From: a bacterium
GTDB lineage: Bacteria > Joyebacterota > Joyebacteria > Joyebacterales > Joyebacteraceae
Assembly (NCBI GenBank): GCA_025774935.1
Contig: JALGZK010000010.1
Location: forward strand, 3,640-67,639
Length of the DNA stretch: 64,000 nt
Direction of reading: 5' to 3'
The notes under the pieces were generated by a model. That model was not told the origin of the DNA. It was given only the letters and a program-made list of their open reading frames with translations, and made no database searches. Made by a program: the position numbers and the translations under genes. Positions within the stretch are counted from its first letter, which is position 1. Each line of letters starts with the position of its first letter. Of the stretch, positions 2,213 through 42,360 are shown in pieces.

Positions 2213-2283
2213 CTTCCACGACGAACGACTTGCACGAGACGCGCGGGGCCGCGAGGCCCCGCGAACGGAAAGGACGACCTTCG

Positions 2284-6357: not shown

Positions 6358-6751
6358 CCGATTGGGTCCCCGCCGCCGTTGGGAGTTTCACCTTCACGTC
6401 GAGATCCGCGGGGCCGGAGGCGGGTGCATAGGGGGTTGCCTGTTCGGTGGAAAACCCGGGGGCCGGCTTCGTGGGGGGGTACGTTACCGGCCCGGCGCGA
6501 CCGAGGCTTCTCGAGTGCCTCACGGTCCCCGCAGGATCTCGGCGAATCCGTAATCGCTCCTCATGTTGCACGGGATTCGCTCCCACACACCCACGACAGA
6601 TTGCACAATCTATGCCAGTTAGGAAGTAACAATGCAGGCAGGGTACCGAAAAGGGCAGGGAATGAGTGCTCCGAGGGGGCCTTGCGGGCTCGCCGGCCGA
6701 GAGGGCCGGCCCTCTCATTAATAGAGGAGCCTCGCCTGGGCACGCGCGGGG

Positions 6752-18224: not shown

Positions 18225-19499
18225 TCACGACGCCGCCTCCTGACGTTCGCCCGTCGGCCCCGCGACGTCACGGCCGCCGCCGCGCGTCGGCCGCGATCGG
18301 GACGATGCGGTCACCTCCCGGAGCGACGAGTGGTTCGGGCGCGAGAGCCGCGCGTACTGGATGTCCGCCGCGAGCCATCGGACGTCCGCGTCGTGCGGGA
18401 CGATCCCGAGCCGGGGCAGGCAGTGCACGGGGTACCGCCTTGAGACGGGCCCGGCGATCGAGGTCACGCCGGATCTGAACCCGGCGTCGGCGACGACCGC
18501 GGCCGTCGTCGCGTCGAAGTGACGGTTCGTCCTTCCGTTCGGGTAGGCGAAGTGCTCGACCTCGCACCCTAGGAGCTCCTCGAGGGCGCGCTTCGACTCC
18601 CCCACCTCGCCGACGAGCGCGTCGGTCGAGACGCTCGGGAGGTTGTAGTGCGTCACCGAGTGCGCGCCGATCGTCATCCCGCCCTCGTGCATCTCCCGGA
18701 TCTCGTCCGGGTTCATCATGATCCTCGAGTCGTACGTGTCCCGCGAGTTCCCGCATGCCTCCCGGACCTCGTTCACGATCTCGAGGGCCTCGCGTTCGCC
18801 CGATCGCTTCACGACCGCGGTAATGAACGCGATCGCCTTCTCCTTCGCGCGCGGGGTCGAGAGGTCTATCGAGCAGGCGCCGAAGGTCCCGCACTTGAGC
18901 CCTTGAGACTCGGTCCTGCGGATCGCGTGGCGAAGGGCGACGGTCCAGAGGATCGATTCGTCCGAGATCGCTCCCGTCGTCACGTAGAACGTCGCGGTCG
19001 CCCCGTGCTTCCTGAGAATCGGGAACGCACAGCGGTAGTTGTCCTCGTACCCGTCGTCGAACGTGATCGCGACGGTTCTCGGGTCGACCCGTCTGCCCGA
19101 AGCGATGGCGTCCGCAAGTTCGGGCACGCCGACGACGCGGTGCCGCTCCACGAGGTAGGCAACCTGCCTGTCGAAGACGTCCGTCGAGACGACCAGGCTC
19201 CGCTGGACGTAGTCTCCCGCCCAGCCGGGGTCGTCGTTGACCGAATGGTAGCGGAGGATCGTCGCACCGCCCCACGGTAGGAGGCTCATGGCCCTCACGA
19301 GAGGCGCGCAGTTCCGGAACGCGCGGCCGAACCCCCACAGGCCGTCGACGGAGATGGCGCCGTTCTCGTCGATGTACGGGACGTCGCCACGCCCCGGGCC
19401 GAGTCCGGCCCTGTCCGCGTCGCCCCACAGGCAGCGGCTCTCCTCGCCGGTGAGACCACGGCCCCTCCCGCGCTCCCTCATGTCGGGGTCCTTCCTCAT
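18225..19499 (-). CDS. Polysaccharide deacetylase (NodB-homology, PEP-CTERM-locus type)
   Basis: ORF 18225..19538; NodB motifs ILRYHSV and VAITFDDGYEDNY. Start placed at ATG 19497-19499, which overlaps the stop of the upstream tandem GT4 gene (ATGA) with GAGGGAG about 11 nt upstream; ATG 19289 is an alternative. Confidence 0.75.
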   Translation of the reverse strand: MRKDPDMRERGRGRGLTGEESRCLWGDADRAGLGPGRGDVPYIDENGAISVDGLWGFGRAFRNCAPLVRAMSLLPWGGATILRYHSVNDDPGWAGDYVQRSLVVSTDVFDRQVAYLVERHRVVGVPELADAIASGRRVDPRTVAITFDDGYEDNYRCAFPILRKHGATATFYVTTGAISDESILWTVALRHAIRRTESQGLKCGTFGACSIDLSTPRAKEKAIAFITAVVKRSGEREALEIVNEVREACGNSRDTYDSRIMMNPDEIREMHEGGMTIGAHSVTHYNLPSVSTDALVGEVGESKRALEELLGCEVEHFAYPNGRTNRHFDATTAAVVADAGFRSGVTSIAGPVSRRYPVHCLPRLGIVPHDADVRWLAADIQYARLSRPNHSSLREVTASSRSRPTRGGGRDVAGPTGERQEAAS

Positions 19500-21832
19500 A
19501 CCGTGTCGAACTCCCTCGCGCGCAGCGCGTCGACCCAACCCACGAGCCCGGACACCCGCTCGTCGAGCAGTTCCAGGTAGTAGTCGATCGTGTCCTCGAC
19601 CATGTGCTCCGTCGAGAACCTGGCGAGGACGCGTTCCCTCCCGGCCCTCCCCATGCGGCGCCGCAGCTCCTCGTCGCCGAGAAGCTCGAGCACGCGACGG
19701 GCGACCCCTTCGGCGTCGCCCGCGGGAAGCAGGAAGCCGGTCTCTCCCTCCTCGATCAGCTCGGGGTTTCCTCCGACGGCGGTCGCCACGACGGGCCTCC
19801 CGGCCGCCATCGCCTCGAGGACCACGTTCGAGCAGCCCTCCTTGATCGAGGTGAGCACGGACACGTCCGTGCTCGCGAGGACGGCGCCGATCCGGTCGGT
19901 CATGCCGGCGAACGTCACTGCCTCCCCGAGCCCGAGCTTCCGCGCGTGCTCGGTGAGCTCCGCCCTGAGCTGTCCGTCTCCGACAATGAGGAACCGCGCG
20001 TCGGGTCTCTCCCTCGCGATCAGAGCGGCGGCCTCGAGGAACGTCGCGTGGTCTTTCTTCGGGGTCAGGCTCGCGATGACGGTGATCGTGGGGCCGCTGC
20101 CCGCGCCGCTCCCGGGGAACGGCTCCGGAGGAGGCGAGCCGGTCCTCGACGGGACGTTTCCGTCGGCGGGCGCCGCGTCGACGTGGCCGCTGACCCGGCG
20201 GACCGAGATCCCGTTGTAGATCACGCGGATCTTCTCCGGGTCGACCCAGTGCATCTCCGCCACGTAGTCCTTGACCGCGCCGGCGTTCACGATCACGCGG
20301 TCCGTGATGCCAGAGAGGATCCTCTCGATGGCGTTTCCGCGAAACCTCGTGTGAACGTCGACGTTCCGCACCGACGTGAGGACGATCGGGACGCGAAGGA
20401 ACCGTCCGACGATGAGCCCCCTCCAGTTCGCCGACGACAGGAACGCGTGCAGGATCACCGGCCGCTCCGTCCTCACCAGACGCGCGAGCTTGCGGGACGC
20501 GCCGGAGAAGTTACCGAGGCGCTTCGCGAGCACGACCAGACGGACCCCGGCCTCCTCGATCTCGCGGCCGAGCGGCCCCAGCTGGCCGAGGCAGCAGACG
20601 ATCGGCTCGAACCGGTCCCTCGGGAGCCGGGTCGCGAGCTCCATGAGCTGGCGCTCGGCCCCACCGCGTTCGAGCTGTCCGATCACGTAGAGGACCTTGA
20701 TCTTCCCGGCCGGGGCGCGGTCCGCGTGCCCCGAGAGCGCAAGGTCGTAGAGCGCCTCCGTCTGCCCGACCATGTGCTTAGCGGTGAAGGCCTTCTCGTA
20801 GGACCGGCGGGCCGCGGCCGCAAGACGCGACCTCCGCCCGGCGTCCCTCGAAAGGAGAGCTATCTTGTCCGCGAGCGCTTCGTGGTCCCGCGGCGGAACC
20901 ACGTACCCGTTCACGCCGTCCCTGATCACCTCTGGGACGCCCCCGACGGCCGTCGAGACGCACGGGACCCCGGCCGCCATCGCCTCGAGCACCGTGATCG
21001 GCAGCCCCTCCCACGCCGAGGAGAGGACGAAGAGGTCCGATCCCCTGAGGAGCCTCGGCACGTCGTCGCGCGACCCGAGGAACGACACGCGATCGCCGAC
21101 GCCGAGCTCGGCCGCGTGGTCGCTCAGGTGCTGGAGGATCGGGCCGCCGCCGGCGACGGCGAAGTACACGGGCGGGACCAGGTCGGAGACTGCCGCGGCC
21201 GCCCGGATGAGGTTCTCGTGGTCCTTCTGTGGACTGAGGTTGCCGACGGTCAGGCAGAGGACGGCGTCGTCGGGCACGCCCAGCTCGCGTCGCACCTCTG
21301 CGCGGTCGCCGGCGACCGGGCGAAGTGTGTCGTCGATGCCGTTCCGGATGGTCACGAGGCGCGCCGGGGAGAACCTCCCCTCGGCGAGCCGGGACCGGGC
21401 GACGGCCTCCGACACGGCGATCTGCGCGTTCTCGCGCATGCTCGCGAGCCTGCTCAACGCGAGCCTGAATGGGAAGCGAGCCGCGGCGACGTTGTGCTCG
21501 GTGCGGAGCACGGCGGTGGCCCCGCCGAGGATGGCGGCGGGGATTCCGACGGTCATCGCAGTGAAGTTGTGGTCGTGGACGACATCGACGCCGCGTCGCC
21601 TGATTAGACCGGCGAGTCTGAGGACGGCGCGGAAGTCGAGACGCGACCTTCGTTCCAGGGCGTGGACGGGGACGCCGCGTTCGTCGAGGACGGCAGCCAG
21701 GGGACCCGCGTCCCCCACGCAGCACACCTCGGGCTCGTAGCGCGAGCGGTCGTGGGAGGTCGCGTACTCGACCACCACGCGCTCGGCCCCACCGAGCCCC
21801 AACGAACCAACGACGTGGAAGACCTTCTTCAT
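19496..21832 (-). CDS. Tandem GT4-GT4 glycosyltransferase (two complete GT4 modules in one polypeptide)
   Basis: Start at ATG 21832 (MKKVFHVVGSLGLGGAERVV); first module ends ...EALYDLALSGH, second begins KIKVLYVIGQLERGGAERQ; each has an EGxP...EAMAAG C-terminal signature. The 525 codons upstream in the same track ORF are Arg-rich and overlap the CoA-ligase-like gene, so they are rejected. Confidence 0.8.
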   Translation of the reverse strand: MKKVFHVVGSLGLGGAERVVVEYATSHDRSRYEPEVCCVGDAGPLAAVLDERGVPVHALERRSRLDFRAVLRLAGLIRRRGVDVVHDHNFTAMTVGIPAAILGGATAVLRTEHNVAAARFPFRLALSRLASMRENAQIAVSEAVARSRLAEGRFSPARLVTIRNGIDDTLRPVAGDRAEVRRELGVPDDAVLCLTVGNLSPQKDHENLIRAAAAVSDLVPPVYFAVAGGGPILQHLSDHAAELGVGDRVSFLGSRDDVPRLLRGSDLFVLSSAWEGLPITVLEAMAAGVPCVSTAVGGVPEVIRDGVNGYVVPPRDHEALADKIALLSRDAGRRSRLAAAARRSYEKAFTAKHMVGQTEALYDLALSGHADRAPAGKIKVLYVIGQLERGGAERQLMELATRLPRDRFEPIVCCLGQLGPLGREIEEAGVRLVVLAKRLGNFSGASRKLARLVRTERPVILHAFLSSANWRGLIVGRFLRVPIVLTSVRNVDVHTRFRGNAIERILSGITDRVIVNAGAVKDYVAEMHWVDPEKIRVIYNGISVRRVSGHVDAAPADGNVPSRTGSPPPEPFPGSGAGSGPTITVIASLTPKKDHATFLEAAALIARERPDARFLIVGDGQLRAELTEHARKLGLGEAVTFAGMTDRIGAVLASTDVSVLTSIKEGCSNVVLEAMAAGRPVVATAVGGNPELIEEGETGFLLPAGDAEGVARRVLELLGDEELRRRMGRAGRERVLARFSTEHMVEDTIDYYLELLDERVSGLVGWVDALRAREFDTV

Positions 21833-21930
21833 CTCGACAACCCCGTGCACCCTTCCCGGCACTCGAGACGCCGGGTCCTTCGTTTCGCCTCGCTGTCTGC
21901 GCCGAGTCTCGCCCTTCGCGTCGCCCGCCC

Positions 21931-24575: not shown

Positions 24576-26600
24576 CTAGCCGCCGGACACCCAGCAGGCG
24601 TCCTCACCCGGCTGCCCGCTCTTCGTGAACAGGACCGTCTGTCCCGCCACGTTCGCCCCGATGAAGTCCCCCGTGTCGATGAACGTCACGTTCGGCATCG
24701 ACGAGACGCCCGACGAGGTCGCGTAGAGGACGTGCAGGAACATGTGCTCGTTTGCCGCGGTCGACGGTGACACCTCCACGCGCCACGACCCGCTCTCCGA
24801 CCCTCCGCCTCCGGCGGGCGGGTAGTTGACACCGTTCACCTCGAACTGCCGGCCGCTTCCGCCGACCGGCGTGATCTGGTGCTGCGTCGGGAGGAGCGTC
24901 TTCACGAACAGCCTCGAGTCTCCCTGCGTGACCGAGAACGTGTCGCCGGACACCTGGGGCTGGTTGATCGAGTGGAGGAGCCACTTCTTGGTGAACGACG
25001 GGGACGTGGCAGTGACCCTGTCCAGCACGACGAAGAAGTCCGGCTTGAGCCACACGAACTCCCTGGTGAAGTTCGAGAGCTTGTGCGACGAGTAGGCCTT
25101 CGTGGCGTCGCCCTTGACGTAGGTGAACGTCTCGGTGTCCCTGTACGGCGTGACGATGCTCCCGCGGTCGAACTCCGGGCCCGACATGTCGCCGCAGACG
25201 ACGGCGTCCGGATAGCTCCAGACCGGGATCTGACCTCCGTCGTTCGCGTACGGATAGAACGTCGACTCGCCGGGGTCGTAGACCGTGATCGTGTTGTGGG
25301 CGATGGTGCGGCAAAAGTAGTTCTGATGATGGGAGCTGATCGACGAGTCGTAGTCGCCCGAGTCGATCGCCAGGAGGTCGTTCCCCCTCGCAATCAGGAA
25401 GTGACCCTGATGGGAGTGGGTGTGGTACGACGGGACGGCCTCGCAGCGGAAGACGGCGTAGATGTCCGTGCTGTTCACGGAGAGGTCCCAGCCGGACCTC
25501 ATGTACACCATGCCCACGTCGTTGAAGAGGGCGGCGCTGTTGTCGCCGTAGACGGCGGACGGGTGGACGGGCGTGACCGACGGGTCCCGCCACACGATCT
25601 GCTTCCAGCGGTCGAACGAGTTGATGTACCCGGATCCCTGCTCGAGGACCTCGTCCGCCACCCACTGGGCCACCCCGTCGTTGTAGACGGCGGCCAGGTT
25701 GTAGAGCGCCATTCGGACGGCCCCCGACCCGCCGCTGTGCCAGTGGGAGTCGCCCTGCTTCGAACCGAGCGACGTCCCGCTCCCCTTCGCGGCGCCCGTG
25801 TCGTAGACGAGGTAGCGGGCCATGTTCTGGTAGTTGGTCGACCACGAGAACGGGTCGTCGGTGGTTCCGACGTCGTAGGCCGTCATGCCCATCCTGTTAC
25901 CCGTGCAGAGGATCGACATGTTGTAGTCGCCCTCGAAGTAGCCTCCGTCGCTCGCGATCTCGTCGAGACAGCAGAGGATGGTCGAGGAGCCGAACTGGTG
26001 GGCCGAGTACGTGTCGAGGCACGCGGTCGCGACCTGGTTGTTGATGCCCTCTCCGTACAGCGCGATGCCCGGGTACGACAGGAGCGCGATCCTCCCGAGC
26101 TTGGAGTGGTAGTTGTTCAGGCTGCTCCACTGCGTCCCGATGCCGCTGCCGCTCTGATACCAGTCGGCACCGTCTGCGAGCGCGCTGCCGTAGGTGCTGC
26201 GCTCGGACGCGGTGAGCCCGTCGTAGCACCAGTCGAAGAACACGCTCCCCCCGAAGATCCAGTCGGTCGAGTGGGTCTGGTTGTGGCTGATCACGTACGA
26301 CGCGACCGCCTTGGCCCGGTTGAGGTAGCTGGTGTCCTGGCTGACGAGGTAGACGAAGCTGTACGACGAGAGCGCCCAGCTCACGTTCACCGGCAGCGGG
26401 TCGTTGATGTGGCTGTCGCACCAGGTCTTGATCTTGTTGTAGTCCGCGGAGTAGGAACCCAGGGCTCTCGAGCGGATGCCGGAGACCTGGCTCGCCGTGA
26501 AGAAGAGCCGCGGGTGTCCCTGGATGACCTGGTACCCCTCCGCCGGGACCACCATGGCCACGACGACGAGAAAGAGCACAGCTAGGGTAGTGAGTCTCAT
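24576..26600 (-). CDS. Secreted heparinase II/III-like polysaccharide lyase family protein
   Basis: ORF 24576..26657; start at ATG 26600 (MRLTTLAVLFLVVVAMVVPAEG signal peptide) with GAGGAG upstream; large Trp/Tyr/His-rich carbohydrate-active fold; start overlaps the upstream stop (ATGA). Confidence 0.65.
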   Translation of the reverse strand: MRLTTLAVLFLVVVAMVVPAEGYQVIQGHPRLFFTASQVSGIRSRALGSYSADYNKIKTWCDSHINDPLPVNVSWALSSYSFVYLVSQDTSYLNRAKAVASYVISHNQTHSTDWIFGGSVFFDWCYDGLTASERSTYGSALADGADWYQSGSGIGTQWSSLNNYHSKLGRIALLSYPGIALYGEGINNQVATACLDTYSAHQFGSSTILCCLDEIASDGGYFEGDYNMSILCTGNRMGMTAYDVGTTDDPFSWSTNYQNMARYLVYDTGAAKGSGTSLGSKQGDSHWHSGGSGAVRMALYNLAAVYNDGVAQWVADEVLEQGSGYINSFDRWKQIVWRDPSVTPVHPSAVYGDNSAALFNDVGMVYMRSGWDLSVNSTDIYAVFRCEAVPSYHTHSHQGHFLIARGNDLLAIDSGDYDSSISSHHQNYFCRTIAHNTITVYDPGESTFYPYANDGGQIPVWSYPDAVVCGDMSGPEFDRGSIVTPYRDTETFTYVKGDATKAYSSHKLSNFTREFVWLKPDFFVVLDRVTATSPSFTKKWLLHSINQPQVSGDTFSVTQGDSRLFVKTLLPTQHQITPVGGSGRQFEVNGVNYPPAGGGGSESGSWRVEVSPSTAANEHMFLHVLYATSSGVSSMPNVTFIDTGDFIGANVAGQTVLFTKSGQPGEDACWVSGG

Positions 26601-28141
26601 GATGTCATCTCCTCTGCTGTCCGGGGAGCTTTGTCGGTTGCTGCGAAACGGACGCATCTATCTACAAGACCGGCGAGGAAGAAATAGGTCCCCGCGATCG
26701 ACATGTTCAGGAATCTCTCTCCGAAGACGTTCGCCGCAAGGAGCGCCGCGGTGGCGCTCAGGAAGCCGAGGGCGATGCCTCTGTCCAGCCTGCGGGATGC
26801 TGCGCGCAGGAGCTCTATGCCGCTCTTCACGCACGACACGAGGAGCCACGCGAGCGCGACTATTCCGATGAGACCCGCCTCTCCGAAGATCGCGACGTAG
26901 AGGTTGTGGGACGAGAACGACCGGCCGATCTCCTTGTAGGTCAGGAACGGGATGGTCGAGTACCCCATCCCCCAGATTGGCGAGCTGCGCATCGTCTCGC
27001 GGAAGACGATCCCCCAGATCTTGAGCCTCACCCCGGCGGACGGGTCGAGTTTGTCCGTCGGGTCTCCCATGAGCTCGGCCTCGACCGTGTCGACCCGAGT
27101 CTCCGCCACTCGGTCCTTCACGAAGTCGGGAGCCCAGATCGGGCTCAGCGCCAGCACGATCAGGAAGAGCACGAAGACGCGCTTGCTCACGCTCAGCGTC
27201 AGGAGCCCGAGCCCGCACGCGAATCCCACCAACGCCCCTCGGGAGTTCGGGAGGAAGACGCCGATCGCGGCGAATGCGGACGACACCCAGATCGTGAGTC
27301 GCTTCATCATCGGGAAGATCCTCGATGACACGAGGACGATCCCGATGATCATCGTGGCGCACATCGCGAAGTACGCGCCGAGGTCGTTCACGTCGCCGAG
27401 CGCACCTGAGACGCGCTGGTGCGAGGCGAGCCCGCCGTACTGGTCGAGCGCGATGAGGGCGCCGACCGTCAGACCGACGCCGAAGGTCACGAGGAGGTTC
27501 TTCATCTGCTCGCGGTTCTCGACCGTGTTCACGACGACGAAGTAGACCGCGATCCCGAGGACGCTGTTCCAGAGGTTCTTGACGAGCACCATCGCCGGGT
27601 AGCTCCCCGTCGACGGTGGGAAGACAACGACCTTGAGGAGCGACATGAAGAGCACGCCGATGAACAGGGCGATCGGCACGGTGAGCCTCGCCCTCACGAA
27701 GATCTGCTGTCTCGCGAAGATCCTGGGGACGATCCAGCTCACCAGGAGGATGATGAAGATGAGGTTGGGCGCGTTGATCCCGGGAATGCCCGTCGCGGGG
27801 AGGTACTCGCCGAGCGGGAGAGCGAGGAGCCAGGCGTGCAGCGCGACGTGGGGCCGGAAGAACGCGACTGTGAAGATGGTCACGCCCACGAGGATCTTGA
27901 TGATCCGGTGCGGAGCCTGCCCGTACGCGTAGTGGAGCTGGAAGATCGCGTAGGCCATGCCGAGAGCGACGACCGCGGCCACGACGTACAGCAGCCAGGC
28001 GTAGCTGTACTGCGGCACCTGGCTCGGCAGCGGGGGCGGCGCCGGGGTCTGTCTCGGCGTTCCGGGATCAGCCACCGCTCTCCTCCTCCGCGTGCTCCGT
28101 CGCGTCCGTCGTCCCGGCGTCCATGACCTCCGCCGCGTCAC
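26597..28141 (-). CDS. O-antigen ligase / Wzy-like polymerase family membrane protein
   Basis: About 12 TM helices; Wzy_C-like motifs RGALVGFACGLGLL and SSHNLYVAIFGEAGLIGIVAL. Start uncertain: ATG 28141 overlaps the upstream gene by 74 nt and gives an Arg-rich N-terminus; GTG near 28018 (VPQYSYAWLLYVV) is the alternative. Confidence 0.75.
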   Translation of the reverse strand: MTRRRSWTPGRRTRRSTRRRRAVADPGTPRQTPAPPPLPSQVPQYSYAWLLYVVAAVVALGMAYAIFQLHYAYGQAPHRIIKILVGVTIFTVAFFRPHVALHAWLLALPLGEYLPATGIPGINAPNLIFIILLVSWIVPRIFARQQIFVRARLTVPIALFIGVLFMSLLKVVVFPPSTGSYPAMVLVKNLWNSVLGIAVYFVVVNTVENREQMKNLLVTFGVGLTVGALIALDQYGGLASHQRVSGALGDVNDLGAYFAMCATMIIGIVLVSSRIFPMMKRLTIWVSSAFAAIGVFLPNSRGALVGFACGLGLLTLSVSKRVFVLFLIVLALSPIWAPDFVKDRVAETRVDTVEAELMGDPTDKLDPSAGVRLKIWGIVFRETMRSSPIWGMGYSTIPFLTYKEIGRSFSSHNLYVAIFGEAGLIGIVALAWLLVSCVKSGIELLRAASRRLDRGIALGFLSATAALLAANVFGERFLNMSIAGTYFFLAGLVDRCVRFAATDKAPRTAEEMTS

Positions 28142-29957
28142 CGAGCGTGAGTTCGTAGATCTCGACCACCGGGTTGTGGAACGAACGGCCGGGCCCGCGA
28201 TCGATCGACGGCATCGGGAACGTCTCGGCGAACCGCGCGACGCGGACGCCGTTCTCCCCGATCCAGTCGAGGAGCGTGCTCGGGCTGGGCGTGCCGGGCG
28301 GCTCCGCGCCCTCCATGGGCCGCCTCTGGTCCGCCTTGCTGGTGATCACGAGGTAGTCGGGGCGGATCTCCTCGATCGCCGCGATCATCGCGGCCTGGTC
28401 GTCGCCGGCCTCGGGGATCCGGAAGAGCTCCTGCCCCCAGCCGGAGCCGAAGATCCGGTACTGCGGGTGCCTCGCCCGACCGATGTCGAGCTCGAGCTCG
28501 TTGATGCGCCGCTTCGACGCGCTCCACGAGGAGACGCCCGTTTTGTCGGCTTCGATCGCGTGCTCGAGCTGCGCTGTCGCGCGGTTGAGCTCCGGCCCGT
28601 AGGACTCGACCACCACCGTGCTCCCCGCCTCGATGTTCTCCTCCACCCACTGCTTCGCCTGCGTGCGCGTGTCGGTCGCGTCGAGCGCGCGGACGAATCG
28701 GAGCGATGGCCACGCGGCGAACGCCAGCACGACGATCGCGACGGTCGTTGCCGCGGCCACCGCCGACGGGGCGCGCGACGTACCGCGTCCGCCGGGTGTC
28801 CGATCGAACGTCCCGAGCCCGAGCAGGAGGACGATCCCCGCGCCCGCCATGGCGGCGATCGCCGGGATCGCCGGCGTCACGTACGTCGAGCGCTTCACGG
28901 TGATCGCGATCAGGAACAGGAGGACGCAGACGACGTAGACGAGCGAGATGAGCGCGCCCGCGAGCCTGAGCTCGGGATGACCCGGTTCGAGCTTGTCGCC
29001 GGCCCTGCCGCGGCGCGCCCCCCGACCCTCGGCCACGCCGCGGCTGAGAGCGAGCACGAACCCGAGGACCGCGAGCAGGAGCACGGGGTAACCGACGCCC
29101 CGGCCGAGGCTCTTCCCGAACACTTCCCCGAGGCCTCGCCAGATCGAGCTCGCCTCCTGGGCGACGCCCGACTCGGACACCATCGTGAACTGCATGAGGA
29201 CGTCTCTCGAGAACTCGCCCGCGCTCACGACCGAGTACGGGGTTCCGATCACGAATCCGACGACGCACGCGACGATCGCGGCCGGGAGCACCCACGCCGC
29301 GATCGCCCGTCTCGAGACGAGGAAGACGAACGCCGTGAGGGTCCCCGCGAAGACGATCACTCCGGGGTACTTGGTGGACGCGGCCAGTCCGGCCAGGAGA
29401 CCCGAGAGAACGAGCTGGCTCGCCCGCCCGGAACGGACCGCGTAGAGAGCGAACAGGAGCGAGACCGACGCGAGGAAGGTCGTCGCCACGTCCGGAGTCG
29501 CGTAGTGCGAGTCGCGGACGTGAAGGAAGCCCACCGCGACCAGGGCCGCCGCGATGAGCCCGGCCGCCCTCCCGAAGGCCGTTCGGCCGAAGAGATACGT
29601 CGTCCAGACGGTGGCGACCCCGGCCGCCACCGAGACGTATCGTCCGATGAGCCAGAACGGCGTTAGGTCGGTGAGGTACGCGCGCGCGAGGTCGAGCGGC
29701 CCGCCGAACGTGCCGGCCGCCTTCCCGATGAGGTAGAAGACGGCGTAGAGGCCGAACACGAAGTACATCATCAGGGACGGCCACCTGAACCAGTGAGGGT
29801 TCATGTCGCCGGTGCCGAATCCGAGCGAGTGGATGAGGATCGAGCCCTCGTCGGGATGGTATGCGTGCGGGAGCCCCCACCCGATCCCCCAGATGCGGAT
29901 CCAGAGGGCGACCCCGATGATGACGATGAGGATGATCGTAGCGTTGCGTCGGCTCAT
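28068..29957 (-). CDS. GT39/ArnT-like (GT-C fold) membrane glycosyltransferase
   Basis: 629 aa; N-terminal polytopic domain with the HPDEG motif (AYHPDEGSILIH) typical of ArnT/PMT-type undecaprenyl/dolichyl-phosphate-sugar-dependent transferases; C-terminal soluble domain. Confidence 0.8.
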   Translation of the reverse strand: MSRRNATIILIVIIGVALWIRIWGIGWGLPHAYHPDEGSILIHSLGFGTGDMNPHWFRWPSLMMYFVFGLYAVFYLIGKAAGTFGGPLDLARAYLTDLTPFWLIGRYVSVAAGVATVWTTYLFGRTAFGRAAGLIAAALVAVGFLHVRDSHYATPDVATTFLASVSLLFALYAVRSGRASQLVLSGLLAGLAASTKYPGVIVFAGTLTAFVFLVSRRAIAAWVLPAAIVACVVGFVIGTPYSVVSAGEFSRDVLMQFTMVSESGVAQEASSIWRGLGEVFGKSLGRGVGYPVLLLAVLGFVLALSRGVAEGRGARRGRAGDKLEPGHPELRLAGALISLVYVVCVLLFLIAITVKRSTYVTPAIPAIAAMAGAGIVLLLGLGTFDRTPGGRGTSRAPSAVAAATTVAIVVLAFAAWPSLRFVRALDATDTRTQAKQWVEENIEAGSTVVVESYGPELNRATAQLEHAIEADKTGVSSWSASKRRINELELDIGRARHPQYRIFGSGWGQELFRIPEAGDDQAAMIAAIEEIRPDYLVITSKADQRRPMEGAEPPGTPSPSTLLDWIGENGVRVARFAETFPMPSIDRGPGRSFHNPVVEIYELTLGDAAEVMDAGTTDATEHAEEESGG

Positions 29958-30011
29958 GCGCTCCTCTCCGGACGCGGTCCCGCGGCTCTGCGCCGCGCGG
30001 CCCGGCGCCCG

Positions 30012-30371
30012 CTAGCTCCGCGAGATGACGAACACGCCGAGACAGATGATGACGAGACCTATGGTCCTCACGGCCGTGATGTGCTCCCCCAGAAAGAGCC
30101 AGGACGCCACGAAGACGAGCACGTACGCGAGGCTCACCATCGGGTACGCGAGGCTCAGGTCCACGTTTGACACCACCGCGATCCACAGGACGGCGGAGAG
30201 CCCGTAGCAGACGAAGCCGATCGCCACCTGCGGGACCTTGAGGATCGGGACGAGCTGACCCCACACGCTTCCTGCCGACACCTCGCCGTAGATCATCATC
30301 CCCTTCTTCATGATGACCTGGCCGGTGGCTCCCAGCAGGACCGCCGCGAGGATGAGCGGGATTCCCTTCAT
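30012..30371 (-). CDS. Small 4-TM DMT/SMR-like membrane protein (ArnE/ArnF- or GtrA-like flippase subunit)
   Basis: 119 aa, four hydrophobic helices, MKGIPLILAAVLLGATGQVIMKKG N-terminus typical of EamA/SMR-like Und-P-sugar flippase subunits; sits between the GT2 and GT39 genes. Confidence 0.65.
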   Translation of the reverse strand: MKGIPLILAAVLLGATGQVIMKKGMMIYGEVSAGSVWGQLVPILKVPQVAIGFVCYGLSAVLWIAVVSNVDLSLAYPMVSLAYVLVFVASWLFLGEHITAVRTIGLVIICLGVFVISRS

Positions 30372-30426
30372 CGAGCGCCTCCTCCACGAACCCGGACCGG
30401 CCGCGCGCCGCGGCCCCGGGCACGGA

Positions 30427-31179
30427 CTACGATGGTCTCCTGATGGCCTGACGTCCTGCGGCGACCATCACGAGGTATCGCCTGATGGTGTCCAGGATGT
30501 TCATCTTGCTCGCGCCGCCCTTCCTGTCGTACCTGAGGACGAGCGGCACCTCTGTCACGCGCGACGGGAGCTGCGCGAGCTTGAGAAGCACCTCGGCGGA
30601 CGAGACGAACCCGGACTCCGTGATGAGGTCGTCTCCGAAGACCCGGAATCCCGCCGCGAGGGTCGAACCCCTGTAGGCCCTGTATCCGCACGAGTAGTCC
30701 CGCACCCCGGGCACTCGCAGGAACGTCCTCAGGAGCATGCTCGCACCCTTGCTCAGGAAGCTCCTGAGAGGCGACAGCCCGACCTCCCTTCCGCCCTTCG
30801 CGTACCTGGAGGCGATGACGATGTCGTAGCCGTCATCGATCCGCTCGAGCATGTCCGGTATGATCGACGGATCGTGCGTGTCGTCGGTGTCCATGCCTAC
30901 GAGCACGCCGTCCTCGCCCGCGATGTCCTTGCCGCGAGCGAACCCGGTCCTGAGCGCCTCCCCGAGGCCGCGGTTGGTCTCGTGCGTCTCGACCGTCAGC
31001 TCGAGCCCGAGCTCCCGGGCGCGCTCCCTGGCCTTCTCCGCGGTCCCGTCTGAGCTCCCGTCGTCGACGAGGAGCACGCCCGCGGGACGGTCGACCCGGC
31101 CGAAGACGGCCGCGATCTTCTCCAGCAGGGGCCCGATCGCTCCGGACTCGTTGTATGCCGGCAGCATCACTACGAGCAT
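30427..31179 (-). CDS. GT2 polyprenyl-phosphate glycosyltransferase (ArnC/GtrB/DPM1-like)
   Basis: 250 aa; MLVVMLPAYNE start, VLLVDDGSSDGT (DxD-type), VGMDTDDTHDP; GAGGA Shine-Dalgarno upstream. Confidence 0.85.
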   Translation of the reverse strand: MLVVMLPAYNESGAIGPLLEKIAAVFGRVDRPAGVLLVDDGSSDGTAEKARERARELGLELTVETHETNRGLGEALRTGFARGKDIAGEDGVLVGMDTDDTHDPSIIPDMLERIDDGYDIVIASRYAKGGREVGLSPLRSFLSKGASMLLRTFLRVPGVRDYSCGYRAYRGSTLAAGFRVFGDDLITESGFVSSAEVLLKLAQLPSRVTEVPLVLRYDRKGGASKMNILDTIRRYLVMVAAGRQAIRRPS

Positions 31180-32333
31180 CGGTTCACGTTCCTCACTTTC
31201 GGCACGAAGTCCGCGGGGCGCGACGTCTTGCCGACGCCGAACGCGTGTTCGATGCCGTCGACGATCCTGACGGCAGCCCGCCCGTCGCCGTAGGGGTTCA
31301 CGGCGTTCGCCATCTCCGAATAGAGCCCGTCGTCGGTCAGGAGCGCGGAGATCCCCTCGGCGACAGACCTCTCGTCCGTCCCGACGATCCGCACGGTTCC
31401 GGCCTCGACCGCCTCCGGCCGCTCCGTCTCGTTCCTGAGCACGAGCACCGGCTTCCCGAGGGCCGGGGCCTCCTCCTGGAGGCCGCCCGAATCGGTCACG
31501 ACGATCGCGGCCTTCTTCATGAGGTCGACGAACGGCGCGTAGGGCATCGGATCGACGAGGTGGATCCGCGCGTGGCCCGAGAGGACCGCGCGCGCCGTCT
31601 CCTGAACGCGGGGGTTCAGGTGGACGGGATAGACGACCTCGATGTCACTCAGGTCGTCGGCCACGGTCCGGAGAGCGCGACAGATGTTCTCGAGCGGCTC
31701 CCCGAAGTTCTCCCGCCGGTGCGCCGTCACGAGGACGAAGCGTCCGCCCACCGGGACGCCGTGGGGCGGCGCCTTCGGGTCGCCGGCGACCTCGAGGAGG
31801 GCGTCTATGACCGTGTTGCCCGTGACGTAGATCGAGTCCGCGGATACGCCTTCGTCCAGGAGGTTCCGCCTGGCCTGCGCGGTCGGGGCGAAGTGGTAGA
31901 CCGACAGCGAGTCTGCGACCCTGCGGTTCATCTCCTCAGGAAACGGCGTGTAGAAGGAGTGCGTACGGAGTCCGGCCTCCACGTGTCCGACCGGGATCCG
32001 TCTGTAGAAGGCGGAGAGGGACGCCGCCATCGTGGTGGTCGTGTCCCCGTGCACCAGCACGAGGTCGGGGCTCTCGGAGGCGATGACCTCGTCCATGCCC
32101 TCGAGCACCGCTGAAGCCACGCGCCACGGGGGCTGGTTGTCGGTCATCACGCGCAGGTCGACGTCGGGAGCGATCGCGAAGAGATCGAGCACCTGGTCGA
32201 GCATCTCGCGGTGCTGGCCCGTCACGCAGATGCGCGACTCGACGCGCCCCTCGCGGGAGGCCAGCTCCTCGATGACGGGTGCCATCTTGATGGCTTCGGG
32301 ACGGGTCCCGAAAACCGAGAGCACTCGGACCAT
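31170..32333 (-). CDS. wecB: UDP-N-acetylglucosamine 2-epimerase (non-hydrolysing)
   Basis: ORF 31170..32693; start at ATG 32333 (MVRVLSVFGTRPEAIKMAPV) with GAGGAG upstream; conserved VTGQHREMLDQVL and HVEAGLRT motifs; the upstream 120 codons are Arg-rich and rejected. Confidence 0.9.
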   Translation of the reverse strand: MVRVLSVFGTRPEAIKMAPVIEELASREGRVESRICVTGQHREMLDQVLDLFAIAPDVDLRVMTDNQPPWRVASAVLEGMDEVIASESPDLVLVHGDTTTTMAASLSAFYRRIPVGHVEAGLRTHSFYTPFPEEMNRRVADSLSVYHFAPTAQARRNLLDEGVSADSIYVTGNTVIDALLEVAGDPKAPPHGVPVGGRFVLVTAHRRENFGEPLENICRALRTVADDLSDIEVVYPVHLNPRVQETARAVLSGHARIHLVDPMPYAPFVDLMKKAAIVVTDSGGLQEEAPALGKPVLVLRNETERPEAVEAGTVRIVGTDERSVAEGISALLTDDGLYSEMANAVNPYGDGRAAVRIVDGIEHAFGVGKTSRPADFVPKVRNVNRCS

Positions 32334-32338
32334 GCGTG

Positions 32339-34591
32339 CTACTCCTCTTCCTCCTCGAGCTCGCTGCTGTCGGACGTGTAGCCGTAGTAGCGGTAGTCGT
32401 AGTAGTACGGCAGCACGCGCTCGAGGTTGTTGACGACCACACCGAGCACGTTCTCCTTCTCGTCCCGCTGCAACTGAACGCCGCGTGTGACGACCTCTCT
32501 TGGAGTCACGCCGGCTCTGAGAACGATCACGACGCCGTCCACCTCGCCGCCCAGGATCATCGCGTCGGGCACGGGCAGGTTGGGCGCAGTGTCGAGGATC
32601 ACGGTGTCGAAGCTCGCGAGGAGCTCCGCCATGACGCGCGACCCGGGCATCGACTCGAGCAACCACGTCGGCTGATCTCGCCGGGTCCCGCACGGCAGGA
32701 CGAAGAGGTTCGGCAGCTTCGTCGGCTTGATGTCCGTGCCGAGGAGGTTTCCCCTCTCGAGAGCGTCGGAGAGCCCGGGCTTGGACGCCACGGCCATGAG
32801 GCGGTGCGCGCGGGGCTTCCTGAGGTCGCAGTCGACGAGGACGGTCCTGTGCCCGTAGTGCTTCGCGAGCGTGATGGCGAGCGAGGCCGCCGCGGTCGAC
32901 TTCCCCTCCCCCCTGTTCGCGCTCGTGACCAGGATCGACTTGGGGATGTCGCGCCCCACGCCGCGCGCGATCCTCCTCGCCATCCTCCTGAACTCGAAGC
33001 TGACCGCGGTCTCCCGCACCATGTGCCGGAGGAGCTCCGAGTCCCCGTTGGATGGCCCCGCACCCTTCTTCCTTACCTTCTTCGCGGCCTTCTTCTCCCT
33101 CGCCGAGATGCCTCGCAGAACGTCGCTGCTCGGGATGGTCGCCAGCACGGGAACGCCTACCGCGGCCTCGATCTCGTCGATGTTCTTGAAGGACGTGTCT
33201 CCCTGCTCCGAGACGAGGATGGCGGCGAGTCCGACGACGGCGCCTCCGAAGACCGACATCACGAGGATCATCAGCTTGTCGGGAGCGACGGGCGAGGTCG
33301 GGCGGACCGGGGGCTCGATGATCTCGAACCGCCCGCCGGCTCGCGCGGCCTCGAGAGCCTCCGTGATCTGGCCGGCTGCGGTCTGCTGTAGAAACGCCTC
33401 GTAAAGGGCCCGCGTCGACTCGACCTCCTGCTCGAGCCTCGTGATCTCGAGCTGGCTTCCCGCGGCCGACGCGCGGCCGCGCGTGTAGTCCCGCATGAAC
33501 CTGCCGAGCACCGACGCCCGCTCCGAGATCATCTGCTCCTCCACCTGAGCGATTCGGTACTGAGCGAACGCCTCCAGGATGTCCGGCGCGGCTCCCGGCA
33601 CGGCCGCCGCGGCCAGTCTCCTCGCCTCCTGGCGGTACTGGTCCTTCTTCTCGGCCTCGCTGACGTAGAGCGTCGTGATCTCGGGACCCTCCTGCGCCGA
33701 GAGTACGAGCACGGAGGCGACCTCCCGCTCGAGCTCGACGAGCTGCTCGGAGTACGACGTGAGGAGGTCGGACTCGAGCACCGAGAGCCTGTTGTACGAG
33801 TTCCCGGCGAGGCCCATCAGGTCATTTCGCTTCTCGTTGACCCGCTCGCCGGCGCGGTCGCGCTCGACGGTCGCCTGACTTATGAGGATGTCGACGCGCC
33901 CGACGTTCGTCGAGTTGACGGGGTTGGCCATCGAGTAGCCGACCGCCTGGCTCTCGCGGTAGTCCTTCAGGCGCAGTTCGGCGTCGTCGAGCTTCTGCCG
34001 GTAGATGACGAGCTGCTCGATGCTGAAGTCGTAGACCGCCCTGATCTCCTCGAGCTGCTCGCGGTTCGACGCACTCACGAAGGCGTTGGTGATGTGCTGC
34101 GCGAGGAGGGTCGCCCGGTCGGGATCGGTGTCCCGTATCACGACCTGGAACCCGTCGGTCGACGAACGGTGGACGCTGATCCGTCGACGGAGCCCCTCCA
34201 CGGCCGCCCCCTCCGCCAGATCCTGGACCGGGATCGCCGGATCCTCCGCGTACGTCTCCTCAGCCCACGCCTTGATCCCCGGATCCTCCGCGAGGTCGAG
34301 CGAGCGGACGAGTTCGACGAGGAACGCCCTGCTCTTCAGCTTCTCCTGAACTCGCGAGAGTTGCTCCTCCGCCGGCGACCGTCCGATGATCTGCGCGAGC
34401 CCCTCCGAGAACCTCTCCTGCACCTTGACGACTATCGTGCTCCTGGCCTCGTAGACCGGCGCGAGCGTCTGCGCGACCCCGAAGCCTGCGCCCCCGGCCA
34501 CGACGATCGGGACGATGAGTAGCCACTTCCGCCTCCACACGGCCCTCAGGAGCGCCATAACGTCGATAGTCTGTACCGGCTGGTCAGGCAT
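32339..34591 (-). CDS. Polysaccharide co-polymerase / tyrosine autokinase (Wzc/EpsG-like, chain-length determinant fused to BY-kinase)
   Basis: 750 aa; N-terminal TM (WLLIVPIVVAGGAGFGV), long coiled-coil periplasmic region, second TM, Walker A (SANRGEGKST), DTAP motif, C-terminal Tyr cluster YYYDYRYYGY. Confidence 0.85.
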   Translation of the reverse strand: MPDQPVQTIDVMALLRAVWRRKWLLIVPIVVAGGAGFGVAQTLAPVYEARSTIVVKVQERFSEGLAQIIGRSPAEEQLSRVQEKLKSRAFLVELVRSLDLAEDPGIKAWAEETYAEDPAIPVQDLAEGAAVEGLRRRISVHRSSTDGFQVVIRDTDPDRATLLAQHITNAFVSASNREQLEEIRAVYDFSIEQLVIYRQKLDDAELRLKDYRESQAVGYSMANPVNSTNVGRVDILISQATVERDRAGERVNEKRNDLMGLAGNSYNRLSVLESDLLTSYSEQLVELEREVASVLVLSAQEGPEITTLYVSEAEKKDQYRQEARRLAAAAVPGAAPDILEAFAQYRIAQVEEQMISERASVLGRFMRDYTRGRASAAGSQLEITRLEQEVESTRALYEAFLQQTAAGQITEALEAARAGGRFEIIEPPVRPTSPVAPDKLMILVMSVFGGAVVGLAAILVSEQGDTSFKNIDEIEAAVGVPVLATIPSSDVLRGISAREKKAAKKVRKKGAGPSNGDSELLRHMVRETAVSFEFRRMARRIARGVGRDIPKSILVTSANRGEGKSTAAASLAITLAKHYGHRTVLVDCDLRKPRAHRLMAVASKPGLSDALERGNLLGTDIKPTKLPNLFVLPCGTRRDQPTWLLESMPGSRVMAELLASFDTVILDTAPNLPVPDAMILGGEVDGVVIVLRAGVTPREVVTRGVQLQRDEKENVLGVVVNNLERVLPYYYDYRYYGYTSDSSELEEEEE

Positions 34592-34657: not shown

Positions 34658-35695
34658 CTACGGTGTCGTTGTGGTTGTCTGCTGCTGCTGCGCCGTCGCG
34701 ATCGCCGCGTTCCTGAACCTGCGGTCGTCGATCTCCCGCTCGATGCTGAGGTAGAGGAGGTAGGCGGTGAGCACCTGGGTCGTCGCGGTGAGAAGCGCGC
34801 CCGCGGCGTTCCAGAACTGGCCGCCGAACGTGTCCTGCGTCGATCCGATGACCACCCTGTCTCCCGCCCTCAGGAAGAACGGCTTCGGCGTGCCGCGTGT
34901 GAGCACGCTCTTGAGGTCCACCTTCGCGACGGCGTGCCCCTCGCCCGCGTCCATCACCACCGAGACCTCGTCCAGTCGCGCGTCGACCGTCGTGCCTCCC
35001 GCGATCGCGATGAGCTGGAAGAGGTCGATCCTGTCCGACGTCGCGTACGCCCCGGGCGTGTTCACCTCGCCGAAGATGTAGACCATGCCCGGGCCCGCGA
35101 GGCCTCCCCCGCCAATGATCGACGGGATCTCGATCGTGTCGCCGGGCATGAGCGCGGGGAGCGGCTGCGCCGTCTCGCCTCTCATGTACGCGCCGAGATC
35201 GACGTTGATGAGCTCGGGTCCGCCGATCGAGGGTCTCAGGATCGAGACGTTGGAGAGGTCGGCGCTCGGGAGCGCCCCTCCGGCGGAACTGAGGAGCTGC
35301 AGGATGTCGGGGATGGCCTCGAAGCTGTAGCGCCCGGGCGCGGTGACCTGTCCGGTCAGATAGACGGCTCTGCTGTTGAACTGCTCGACCGACACCGTTA
35401 CCTGGGTGGTCTCCCTCGTGTAGTCTCTCAGGCGCTGGACGATCTCCCTCGAAAGCTCGGACGGAGTGAGTCCGGCCGCCGTGAGCTCGCCGATCGGGGG
35501 GAGCGTGATCGTCCCGTTCGATTTGACGGTGACGTCCTGGTTCAGGTCGGAGTGACGCCAGACCGCGACCCTGAGCACATCGCCCGGGCCGATGACGTAC
35601 TCGATTCCCTGCTGCTGCGCCGGCGCCTCGACCGCAACGAGCGGCAGGATCATGGTAACGAGCAGGATCGATGACACGAGCTTTCTGCTGGACAT
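34658..35695 (-). CDS. Polysaccharide export protein (Wza/EpsE-like, Poly_export + SLBB domains)
   Basis: ORF 34658..35845; start at internal ATG (MSSRKLVSSILLVTMILPLVAVEAPAQ signal peptide); motif YVIGPGDVLRVAVW typical of Wza-like proteins; C-terminal helix AGALLTATTQVLTAYLLYL. Confidence 0.85.
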   Translation of the reverse strand: MSSRKLVSSILLVTMILPLVAVEAPAQQQGIEYVIGPGDVLRVAVWRHSDLNQDVTVKSNGTITLPPIGELTAAGLTPSELSREIVQRLRDYTRETTQVTVSVEQFNSRAVYLTGQVTAPGRYSFEAIPDILQLLSSAGGALPSADLSNVSILRPSIGGPELINVDLGAYMRGETAQPLPALMPGDTIEIPSIIGGGGLAGPGMVYIFGEVNTPGAYATSDRIDLFQLIAIAGGTTVDARLDEVSVVMDAGEGHAVAKVDLKSVLTRGTPKPFFLRAGDRVVIGSTQDTFGGQFWNAAGALLTATTQVLTAYLLYLSIEREIDDRRFRNAAIATAQQQQTTTTTP

Positions 35696-36079
35696 CGTTC
35701 GTCCCCCCGAGTCAGAACTGCGTGGAAGTCGCCGGTCGTGCCGGCGGCGTCCCGTCTGTTCCACGTTCTCGCTGAGTTCCCAGAGTTGTGCGGCACACGA
35801 CGGGCGGCCCGGGACGCGAGTCCCGCAGTCGCCCGGCGCACACATGGTTACCGGCTACGGACACAGCGGTCAACAGGAAACAGTCAGAACTGTTGCCTTT
35901 TCCGACACCCCCACTCCAGCCACTCGCACGGGTCATCTCTAATACCTTGCGGTTCAACAAGTTACGGATATCCACAAGGGGGGCTCCGCGTGCCGGGAGC
36001 GAACGCAGGGACCCCCCGGAAAGCACACAATGAAGCAGTTCCGGGGGGTCCTTTTGCATCACCTGTGCCAGAGAGAACC

Positions 36080-38682: not shown

Positions 38683-39429
38683 TCATCTCCGGCGCGACAG
38701 GCGCATCACCTTCTGGCGCGCGGGGACCCGCGGCGGCCGCCCGATGGCCATGAGGAAGATGAGCACCACGCCGGCCGCGAAGCCGCCGATGTGCGCCATG
38801 TAGGCGACGCCCGTCGACGCGCCGAGCCCGACGGTCACCTGCGAGATGAGCTGGAGCACGATCCAGAACCCGAGGACGACGAACGCCGGCATGACCACGA
38901 TCGCCCGCACGACGAGCACTCGCACCGGGTTCCGGGGGTACTTGACGAGATACGCTCCTAGGACGCCGGCGATTGCGCCCGAGGCGCCGAGTGAAGGGAT
39001 GACCGAGTTCGAGGCAAACGCGACGTGCGCCAGACTCGCCCCGATCCCGCAGAGGAGGTAGAAGAGGATGAAGCGCCCGTGTCCGAGGATGTCCTCGATC
39101 TGGTCGCCGAAGATGGCGAGGTAGAGCATGTTCCCGATGATGTGCATCCAGGACCCGTGCATGAACATCGCGGTCAGGAGCGTGATGTGGATGGGAACCG
39201 GGCCCGGAGCCTGCGGGATCTCGAGCGTCTGCCCCGCGAACTCGACCATCTGCGCGTGGACGAGGTCGACGTTCCTGGTGATCTCGAACGGGATCGCGGC
39301 CCAGCCGTAGGTGAACGACTCGCCGATCCCGAGCTGCGCGAGCCAGAAGAGTACGTTGACCCCGATTAGCGTCCAGACCACGTACGGGGTCGTCTCCCTC
39401 TGTGAGTTGTCGTCGCCGAGCGGGAACAT
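38683..39429 (-). CDS. Rhomboid family intramembrane serine protease
   Basis: 248 aa; 6 TM; catalytic GASGAIAGVLGAY (GxSG) and downstream AHIGGFAAGV (His) motifs. Confidence 0.85.
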   Translation of the reverse strand: MFPLGDDNSQRETTPYVVWTLIGVNVLFWLAQLGIGESFTYGWAAIPFEITRNVDLVHAQMVEFAGQTLEIPQAPGPVPIHITLLTAMFMHGSWMHIIGNMLYLAIFGDQIEDILGHGRFILFYLLCGIGASLAHVAFASNSVIPSLGASGAIAGVLGAYLVKYPRNPVRVLVVRAIVVMPAFVVLGFWIVLQLISQVTVGLGASTGVAYMAHIGGFAAGVVLIFLMAIGRPPRVPARQKVMRLSRRR

Positions 39430-42261: not shown

Positions 42262-42360
42262 GGGAACCTCCGGGATGGAGACGGATCCTGTCGCCTCGGA
42301 GCCGCCCGCTCACGCGTCGGCGACATCGGCTGTTCGCCGCTCGCGATCGCGTCGCGGGCC

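Follow-up and report, generated by a model that had tools for sequence, protein, structure and literature searches.

The subject of this analysis is a group of three contiguous genes on the minus strand of a 64,000-nucleotide stretch of bacterial DNA (contig JALGZK010000010.1 of assembly GCA_025774935.1, lineage Joyebacteraceae; the whole stretch is called the window here). In the order of reading, they encode a family 2 glycosyltransferase of the GT-A fold (GT2; 250 aa, 30427-31179), a four-helix membrane protein of 119 aa that resembles EamA and ArnF (30012-30371), and a glycosyltransferase of the GT-C fold (629 aa, 28068-29957). Both the list of open reading frames (ORFs) and a direct reading of the strand place them at exactly the coordinates of a first-pass annotation made from the letters of the sequence. 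That annotation described them as an ArnC/ArnE/ArnT-like triad embedded in an exopolysaccharide (EPS) operon of the exosortase type. The embedding is confirmed, since the operon runs on the same strand from a Wza-like gene to the gene of a 294-aa membrane protein (12483-35845; ORFs with Pfam and NCBIfam scans), and the triad is flanked on both sides by its genes, from Wza and Wzc to exosortase and EpsI. The reading developed below is that the triad is a three-component periplasmic glycosylation system that may act on the polysaccharide of its own operon.

The GT2 protein matches PF00535 with an E value of 2.4e-21, and its best relatives in NCBIfam are the Dol-P-hexose transferase, PpgS, ArnC, AglJ and PgfS models. 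Among solved structures, the DPMS of P. furiosus (5mlz; E 7e-19, 72 bits) comes first, three ArnC structures follow (approximately 1e-11), and the GtrB-like sll0501 structure is more distant (E 5e-5, 26 bits). All the closest solved and curated relatives are polyprenyl-phosphate sugar synthases and not ordinary GT2 enzymes of repeat-unit assembly, which bears out the earlier description of the protein as a polyprenyl-phosphate glycosyltransferase. The DxD motif (Asp97-x-Asp99) is aligned with that of DPMS, and neither the motif nor the THDP that follows it varies among 21 orthologues. The protein shows no hydrophobic segment, a feature that distinguishes it from GtrB, ArnC and the P. furiosus DPMS, all of which carry transmembrane (TM) helices, and that likens it to the TM-less enzymes of the DPM1/Ppm1/PpgS type. 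From these similarities, it is predicted to be a polyprenyl-phosphate sugar synthase of this last type.

The 119-aa protein has four hydrophobic helices and matches the EamA family (PF00892; E 5e-9) above the gathering score. In NCBIfam it matches ArnF (E 2.9e-16; 60 bits, cut-off 99) and ArnE (E 1.6e-9; 37.9 bits, cut-off 92). It is an ArnE/F-like four-TM member of the DMT/SMR group, and its earlier description as a four-helix flippase-like protein stands. A weak similarity to EmrE is also present, over TM2-4. The assignment to the SMR drug/proton antiporters of the EmrE type is opposed by the residue at the position of the essential Glu14 of EmrE, which is here an invariant Gly14 (global alignment; residues 37-102 of the EmrE sequence verified). 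No second copy of the gene is found in the window, so that a homodimer is the likely form of the protein. No other gene of the operon is as conserved: the protein is 77-94% identical across orthologous loci, and 64% of its positions are invariant in 23 orthologues, compared with 38% in the GT2 and 21% in the GT-C. A presumed lipid flippase would not usually be conserved to this degree, which suggests that additional constraints are at work, for example the docking of the TM-less GT2. The protein is predicted to be a flippase for a lipid-linked sugar, probably as a homodimer, and it is possibly the membrane partner of the GT2 as well.

The GT-C protein has approximately 13 TM helices, a loop with Asp36-Glu37 after TM1, and a periplasmic α/β C-terminal domain of approximately 180 aa (residues ~430-605). 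It matches PF13231 (PMT_2; E 2.6e-12) above the gathering score and reaches 20.3 bits against PF02366 (PMT), just under the gathering score of 22.7. The HPDEG motif that had been pointed out in it is indeed present (His34-Pro35-Asp36-Glu37-Gly38). The first-pass annotation made its proposal depend on a catalytic Asp/Glu loop, and Asp36 and Glu37 are invariant in an alignment of 47 GT-C sequences that extends down to 22% identity. A search of the PDB with the single sequence returned no match; the family profile reaches Pmt1 (8e-9) and ArnT (9e-7) by sequence, and its alignment puts the invariant Asp156 and Lys196 on a conserved Asp and Lys of ArnT. ArnT (18% identity) is also the best structural match, at 21.8 among the matches listed, followed by ALG12 (20.7), Pmt4 (19.4), ALG9 (19.1), PglB (19.1) and AglB (17.9). 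Only 345 residues are aligned in the match to ArnT, in which the C-terminal domain has no counterpart. By sequence this domain is nearly unique, with 8 relatives at E <= 1e-3 among 1.84 billion cluster representatives, and it is a generic periplasmic domain of GT-C enzymes rather than the signature of an oligosaccharyltransferase.

The presence of STT3, AglB and PglB among the top fold matches leads to the alternative that the GT-C acts on an oligosaccharide or polysaccharide linked to undecaprenyl diphosphate (Und-PP), as an oligosaccharyltransferase, ligase or polymerase, in which case the GT2 would be an ordinary enzyme of the repeat unit. A weak match to the archaeosortase-associated STT3 family TIGR04154 (E 4.5e-6; 25 bits, cut-off 450) and the failure to find a Wzx in the operon point in the same direction. 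However, the TIGR04154 match is confined to the generic core (residues 106-219), the WWDYG motif of STT3, AglB and PglB is absent from the protein, and the relatives of the GT2 are exclusively polyprenyl-phosphate sugar synthases. Moreover, the closest GT2 homologues of other phyla adjoin GT-C genes in all four loci sampled, and the slot of polymerase or ligase is already filled by a separate Wzy_C protein (26597-28141, minus strand; Pfam and NCBIfam). This alternative is given a very low probability.

The linkage of the three genes is tight. They are contiguous, as had been described; 55 and 54 nt separate them, a terminator is not predicted in between, and a GGAGG-like ribosome-binding site precedes each. 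The stop of the wecB gene (31170-32333, minus strand) overlaps the start of the GT2 gene by 10 nt. Between positions 23000 and 37000, a consensus scan returned no terminator-like site, compared with 3.9 expected in shuffles, and a sigma-70 scan found one promoter-like site on the opposite strand and none on the minus strand. The first-pass annotation had named separate transcription with unrelated regulation as incompatible with its proposal. The short gaps and the lack of a terminator or minus-strand promoter match give no indication of it, although co-transcription of the triad is not thereby proven. A weak candidate for the promoter of the operon is a sigma-54-like -24/-12 element, TGGCACAGGTGATGC (36056-36070, minus strand), which has one mismatch to TGGCAC-N5-TTGC and sits between ddl and the gene that opens the EPS operon. 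The element fits the presence of a sigma-54-dependent PEP-CTERM-box response regulator at 9372-10853 (NCBIfam and Pfam scans). Matches to the sigma-54 pattern are not enriched in the window (19 found, 29 expected), and the position of only this one site is suggestive. Sigma-54-like sites with two mismatches lie at 6603-6617 (minus strand), upstream of an FN3 gene.

The association of the three genes recurs in other genomes. A genome scan returned 79 loci, among which a set of 22 (L001, L005-L023, L025 and L026) is of the Eisenbacteria type; those homologues that bear a name in their sources are Candidatus Eisenbacteria. The order GT2, four-TM protein and GT-C is kept in 22 of these 22 loci, with identities of 47-94%, and wecB lies directly upstream of the GT2 gene in each of the 20 that reach that far. 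Genes for Wzy_C, a heparinase-like protein, GT4 enzymes and a CapK-like protein are found downstream. In every orthologous locus, the triad is located between wzc/wecB and wzy_C/GT4 of one polysaccharide operon. Two further loci, L002 and L024, carry identical proteins and were counted as one independent lineage. In them the GT-C is 35% identical, the GT2 gene stands directly before it, a NodB deacetylase gene directly after it and wecB 3 kb upstream, and the place of the four-TM gene is taken by PF03706 (LPG_synthase_TM), another family of candidate lipid flippases.

Outside the Eisenbacteria, the closest homologues of the GT2 (50-54% identical) adjoin GT-C genes in four of the four loci sampled, and these GT-C proteins are of the PMT_2, PMT, GT87 and TMEM260_N types. 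In L087 the order is GT-C, GT2, GT-C and a 119-aa EamA-like protein that is 54% identical to that of the window over its full length and with no gap, the GT-Cs of this locus are unrelated by sequence to that of the window (E 0.4), and a WecB (54%) is encoded 3 kb away. This recurrence of the GT2 and the 119-aa protein beside unrelated GT-Cs suggests that the two form a conserved pair that supplies the donor, and that the GT-C is the exchangeable, acceptor-specific part. In the distant GT-C homologues L003, L004 and L066 (Hakubella), no linked synthase is seen in the gene context. A different layout is observed in L084 and L086, where five to seven membrane proteins of approximately 500 aa are arrayed around one TM-less GT2; several of them are GT-Cs (PMT_2, PMT, GT87) and several have no Pfam match. 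In this layout, a single donor synthase seems to serve many GT-C transferases.

These comparisons also bear on the idea that the three genes are neighbours with unrelated functions, such as a drug or metabolite exporter of 119 aa and a GT-C of some other pathway. It draws on the weak similarity to EmrE and on the fact that function is deduced here from homology and position. Against it stand the order kept throughout the 22 loci, the recurrence in unrelated lineages of the pairing of GT2 and GT-C and of the grouping of all three in L087, and the invariant Gly at the Glu14 position of EmrE. It is regarded as highly improbable.

It is well known that periplasmic glycosylation can be carried out by three-component systems, in which a polyprenyl-phosphate-linked monosaccharide is made, flipped across the membrane and used by a GT-C transferase (the concept of Mann and Whitfield; Kelly et al., 2024, PMC11127046; PMC8035078). 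The kind of system is explicitly described as widespread, and the triad is of this familiar kind: it combines a GT2 that has a DxD motif and groups with the polyprenyl-phosphate sugar synthases, a small multi-helix candidate flippase, and a GT-C with an acidic loop, all encoded by genes that are located together and inherited together. That the triad performs the chemistry of such systems in general is considered highly likely.

What the analysis shows in silico is which family or fold each part has, that the catalytic motifs are present, and that the genes are closely linked and recur together. These results are consistent with a scheme of three steps, of which the carrier lipid, the use of a single sugar as donor, the flipping and the acceptor are inferred. 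In the first step, as homology suggests, the soluble or peripheral GT2 would use a nucleotide sugar to load undecaprenyl (polyprenyl) phosphate with a single sugar residue on the cytoplasmic face. In the second, the ArnE/F-like homodimer would flip the polyprenyl-phosphate sugar to the periplasmic leaflet, a role proposed from its family and context, and it may in addition tether the TM-less GT2 to the membrane. In the third, the GT-C would glycosylate a periplasmic acceptor from the lipid-linked monosaccharide, with Asp36/Glu37 as the putative catalytic acid/base; the fold and the loop are seen in silico and the activity is deduced from them. The acceptor would be an Und-PP-linked repeat unit or a growing chain, to which a side-branch sugar would be added after export, as in the Gtr, Gml and rhamnan side-chain systems. 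The EPS is favoured as acceptor because of the position of the module in a polysaccharide operon and because three-component side-chain systems encoded within the locus of their polymer are well documented (PMC11127046; PMC8035078). The first-pass annotation held that the acceptor is not predictable from sequence; we agree, and the assignment made here is one of inference. The probability of a three-component system that has the polysaccharide of its own operon as acceptor is estimated at roughly 0.55.

Several observations weigh against this reading. The position of the genes is the sole argument within the data for the EPS as acceptor. Regarding the donor sugar, the NCBIfam scores of the GT2 fall far under the equivalog cut-offs, roughly 6- to 12-fold, and the Dol-P-hexose transferase, PpgS and ArnC models all reach 55-60 bits, so that the sugar is not separable by family score. 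ArnT, the best structural match of the GT-C, acts on lipid A. Furthermore, Pfam and NCBIfam scans detected no flippase of the Wzx, MurJ or MATE type across the EPS operon (12483-35845), with the consequence that the route by which the main chain or its repeat unit is exported is not fully explained. The flippase function of proteins of the ArnE/F or GtrA type has rarely been shown directly (PMC11127046). Finally, an exosortase is encoded in the operon, and the PEP-CTERM and FN3 proteins of the window could be acceptors instead.

This last point gives rise to a competing proposal, already raised by the first-pass annotation, according to which the GT-C uses the same donor chemistry to O-glycosylate exported proteins, for example PEP-CTERM or FN3 proteins that pass through the exosortase, in the manner of PMT/GT39 enzymes or of the streptococcal Pgf and GtrB-PgtC systems. 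The exosortase context and the similarity of the GT-C to PMT agree with it. Nevertheless, a search of the PEP-CTERM and FN3 proteins of the window for Ser/Thr-rich linkers found none, and the GT-C does not possess the hallmarks of PMT or of oligosaccharyltransferases. Protein glycosylation appears rather unlikely on this balance.

The comparison with described systems shows where the likeness ends. The Gtr and Gml (Klebsiella) systems also encode a GT2 synthase, a small candidate flippase and a GT-C together and act after export of the polysaccharide, and they share the modularity seen here, with a conserved synthase/flippase pair (gtrAB) and a variable, serotype-specific GT-C (gtrC). Unlike GtrA, however, the candidate flippase of the triad belongs to the EamA/ArnE-F type and has no match to PF04138. 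GtrB has two C-terminal TM helices and the GT2 has none, being closer to DPMS than to sll0501. A PMT_2-type enzyme that carries a C-terminal domain specific to its lineage serves as the GT-C, and the module is housed in a Wza/Wzc EPS operon of the exosortase type in an uncultured phylum. Without PF04138 and a hydrophobic segment in the GT2, the triad is not a Gtr system in the strict sense.

The systems that handle amino sugars, namely Arn (ArnC, ArnE/ArnF and ArnT), Lgm of Bordetella and Flm/NaxD of Francisella, offer a second comparison. It is the basis of another alternative, in which the triad would modify lipid A or the core of the lipopolysaccharide as ArnT, LgmB and FlmK do, possibly with a sugar that de-N-acetylation has turned into an amino sugar, its genes being merely housed in the EPS operon. 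ArnT is indeed the top structural match of the GT-C, and the candidate flippase is ArnF-like. Yet all the Arn equivalog cut-offs are missed (ArnC scores 55.3 against a cut-off of 529, and ArnF and ArnE fall short as given above), the GT-C has no match to an ArnT model, and where Arn has the ArnE/ArnF pair, the triad has a single candidate flippase gene. No lipid A genes are found among the annotated ORFs of the window, nor are arnA, arnB and arnD, the genes for making UDP-L-Ara4FN and for deformylation, so that an Arn pathway is not encoded there. In addition, the context is that of an EPS and not of lipid A, the position in the EPS operon is strictly conserved in the 22 loci, and the lineage-specific C-terminal domain is unmatched in the ArnT alignment. 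Modification of lipid A is accordingly given a low probability.

The names used by the first-pass annotation therefore hold as descriptions of likeness and not as family assignments. This applies to the Arn names, for the reasons just given, and equally to GT39: the GT-C has the DE motif, its PF02366 score is below gathering and it has no MIR match, which amounts to a resemblance to PMT only. Strictly taken, the triad belongs to none of the Arn, Gtr, GT39/PMT and STT3 families.

A further parallel is found in mycobacteria. PpgS is its second-best NCBIfam match (56.9 bits, cut-off 370), and the polyprenyl-phosphate-N-acetylgalactosamine system of PpgS (Rv3631), Rv3632 and Rv3779, like Ppm1/PMT, joins a TM-less DPM1-like GT2 to a small membrane protein and a GT-C and decorates a polysaccharide of the cell envelope. 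The small partner of the PpgS system belongs to the GtrA family, and the organism, the polymer and the family of the GT-C differ from those of the triad. The Gram-positive systems CsbB/GtcA/YfhO, GacI-L and Pgf (PMC8035078; PMC12041528) resemble it in the three-step mechanism and in having a polysaccharide or a protein as target. They use YfhO- or GacL-type GT-Cs and GtrA-type flippases, whereas the triad lies in a Wza/Wzc export operon of a presumably diderm host.

Neighbouring genes bear on the nature of the donor sugar. WecB scores 474 bits against TIGR00236 (cut-off 210) and is of the non-hydrolysing UDP-N-acetylglucosamine (or UDP-diNAc-uronate) 2-epimerase type. Three of the six lineages sampled have it linked to the GT2/GT-C pair; in L084-L086 it is absent within 6 kb. 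As a presumed member of the module, it is possibly the supplier of nucleotide sugar for the triad. The translational coupling of wecB to the GT2 gene weakly suggests a sugar derived from UDP-N-acetylmannosamine (UDP-ManNAc). Polyprenyl-phosphate-ManNAc, to our knowledge, has not been described as a lipid-linked donor, and its use here is considered unlikely. On the plus strand (1133-3039), two WbpB/WbpD-like genes, which overlap by approximately 140 nt as called, encode an oxidoreductase of the GFO/IDH/MocA type and an acetyltransferase of the hexapeptide type. If these carry out the WbpB and WbpD reactions in the synthesis of UDP-2,3-diacetamido-uronate, the epimerase could be WbpI-like and serve the main chain.

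The operon also encodes a NodB-type deacetylase (PF01522-like; 18225-19538, minus strand) with matches to the deacetylase domains of PgaB, PdaB and HfsH in NCBIfam and no match to an ArnD model. Translation probably begins near 19289, which would leave the ORF with a long untranslated N-terminal extension, and no hydrophobic leader or signal peptide was found in the N-termini of these deacetylases. An insertion of approximately 100 residues separates its catalytic motifs. Homologues with 34-37% identity lie directly downstream of the GT-C gene in L002 (11773-12816) and L024 (7710-8753), and the leaderless deacetylase is inherited together with the module in two of the three lineages in which WecB is linked. 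It could, speculatively, be an accessory enzyme that acts on a lipid-linked N-acetylhexosamine, and a ManNAc-derived donor might possibly be de-N-acetylated in a step like that of ArnD or of LgmC from the lgm amino-sugar system (PMC4993483). In the most elaborate version of this idea, UDP-ManNAc from WecB would be converted by the GT2 to polyprenyl-phosphate-ManNAc, de-N-acetylated by the NodB protein, flipped and transferred by the GT-C, and the resulting amine on the EPS would be the nucleophile of the exosortase for PEP-CTERM proteins. If true, protein sorting would be chemically tied to the EPS, and the free amine would be the long-sought exosortase nucleophile; we regard this version as extremely improbable.

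The remaining genes of the operon, all on the minus strand, complete the picture of a polysaccharide locus. It begins with the Wza-like exporter (34658-35845) and a Wzc-like chain-length/tyrosine kinase protein (32339-34591), both recognised in Pfam and NCBIfam, which are followed by WecB, the triad and Wzy_C. A heparinase II/III-like protein (24576-26657; Pfam and NCBIfam) comes next, then a GT4, a CapK/PaaK-like ligase and a double GT4 fusion of approximately 790 aa (~19496-21870), the counterpart of which in L001 is a double GT4 of 795 aa. After the NodB-type deacetylase and another GT4, the operon continues with a fusion of a WcaI-like GT4 to a phosphoglycosyltransferase C-terminal domain of the WbaP type (15040-16896), the exosortase (14105-15388; TIGR02602, 199 bits), EpsI (13464-14108; Pfam and NCBIfam) and the 294-aa multi-helix protein (12483-13367), which has no annotation and is a candidate for some membrane role.

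Past the operon and the response regulator, domain scans identify several secreted proteins. One is a PEP-CTERM protein (3154-4032, minus strand). Another, of 674 aa (4333-6357, minus strand), carries FN3/purple-acid-phosphatase-N domains in tandem and, at its C-terminus, an FlgD_ig domain, and an FN3 lipoprotein-like protein of 537 aa (6860-8473, minus strand) has a "choice-of-anchor X" match. All three are possible cargo of the exosortase or of another sorting system. Upstream of the operon, a rhomboid/rhombosortase-like protease (weak matches) and an arylsulfotransferase-like protein are encoded among 38683-39429, 40912-43800 and 47573-48946 (all on the minus strand), and two large ORFs (449 and 479 aa) have no family match in Pfam or NCBIfam. 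An arylsulfotransferase-like gene is also present in the distant EPS locus L002.

No published description was found of the combination of a TM-less DPMS-like GT2, a single ArnE/F-like four-TM protein and a PMT_2-type GT-C whose C-terminal domain is restricted to its lineage, in a Wza/Wzc/exosortase EPS operon of an uncultured phylum. A full-text search for Eisenbacteria together with exopolysaccharide returned nothing, and the PEP-CTERM literature that was retrieved does not mention the GT-C module. The practical consequence of the finding is limited, given that the class of mechanism is established and that the sugar and the acceptor are not readable from sequence. If confirmed, the triad would show that three-component glycosylation after export, a strategy described for O antigens, lipid A, teichoic acids and mycobacterial arabinogalactan, is also used in EPS operons of the exosortase type and by an uncultured phylum, the Eisenbacteria. 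It would also provide a clean example of modularity, in which a TM-less GT2 and its 119-aa partner are combined with interchangeable GT-Cs, and would help to predict the decoration of environmental polysaccharides with side chains.

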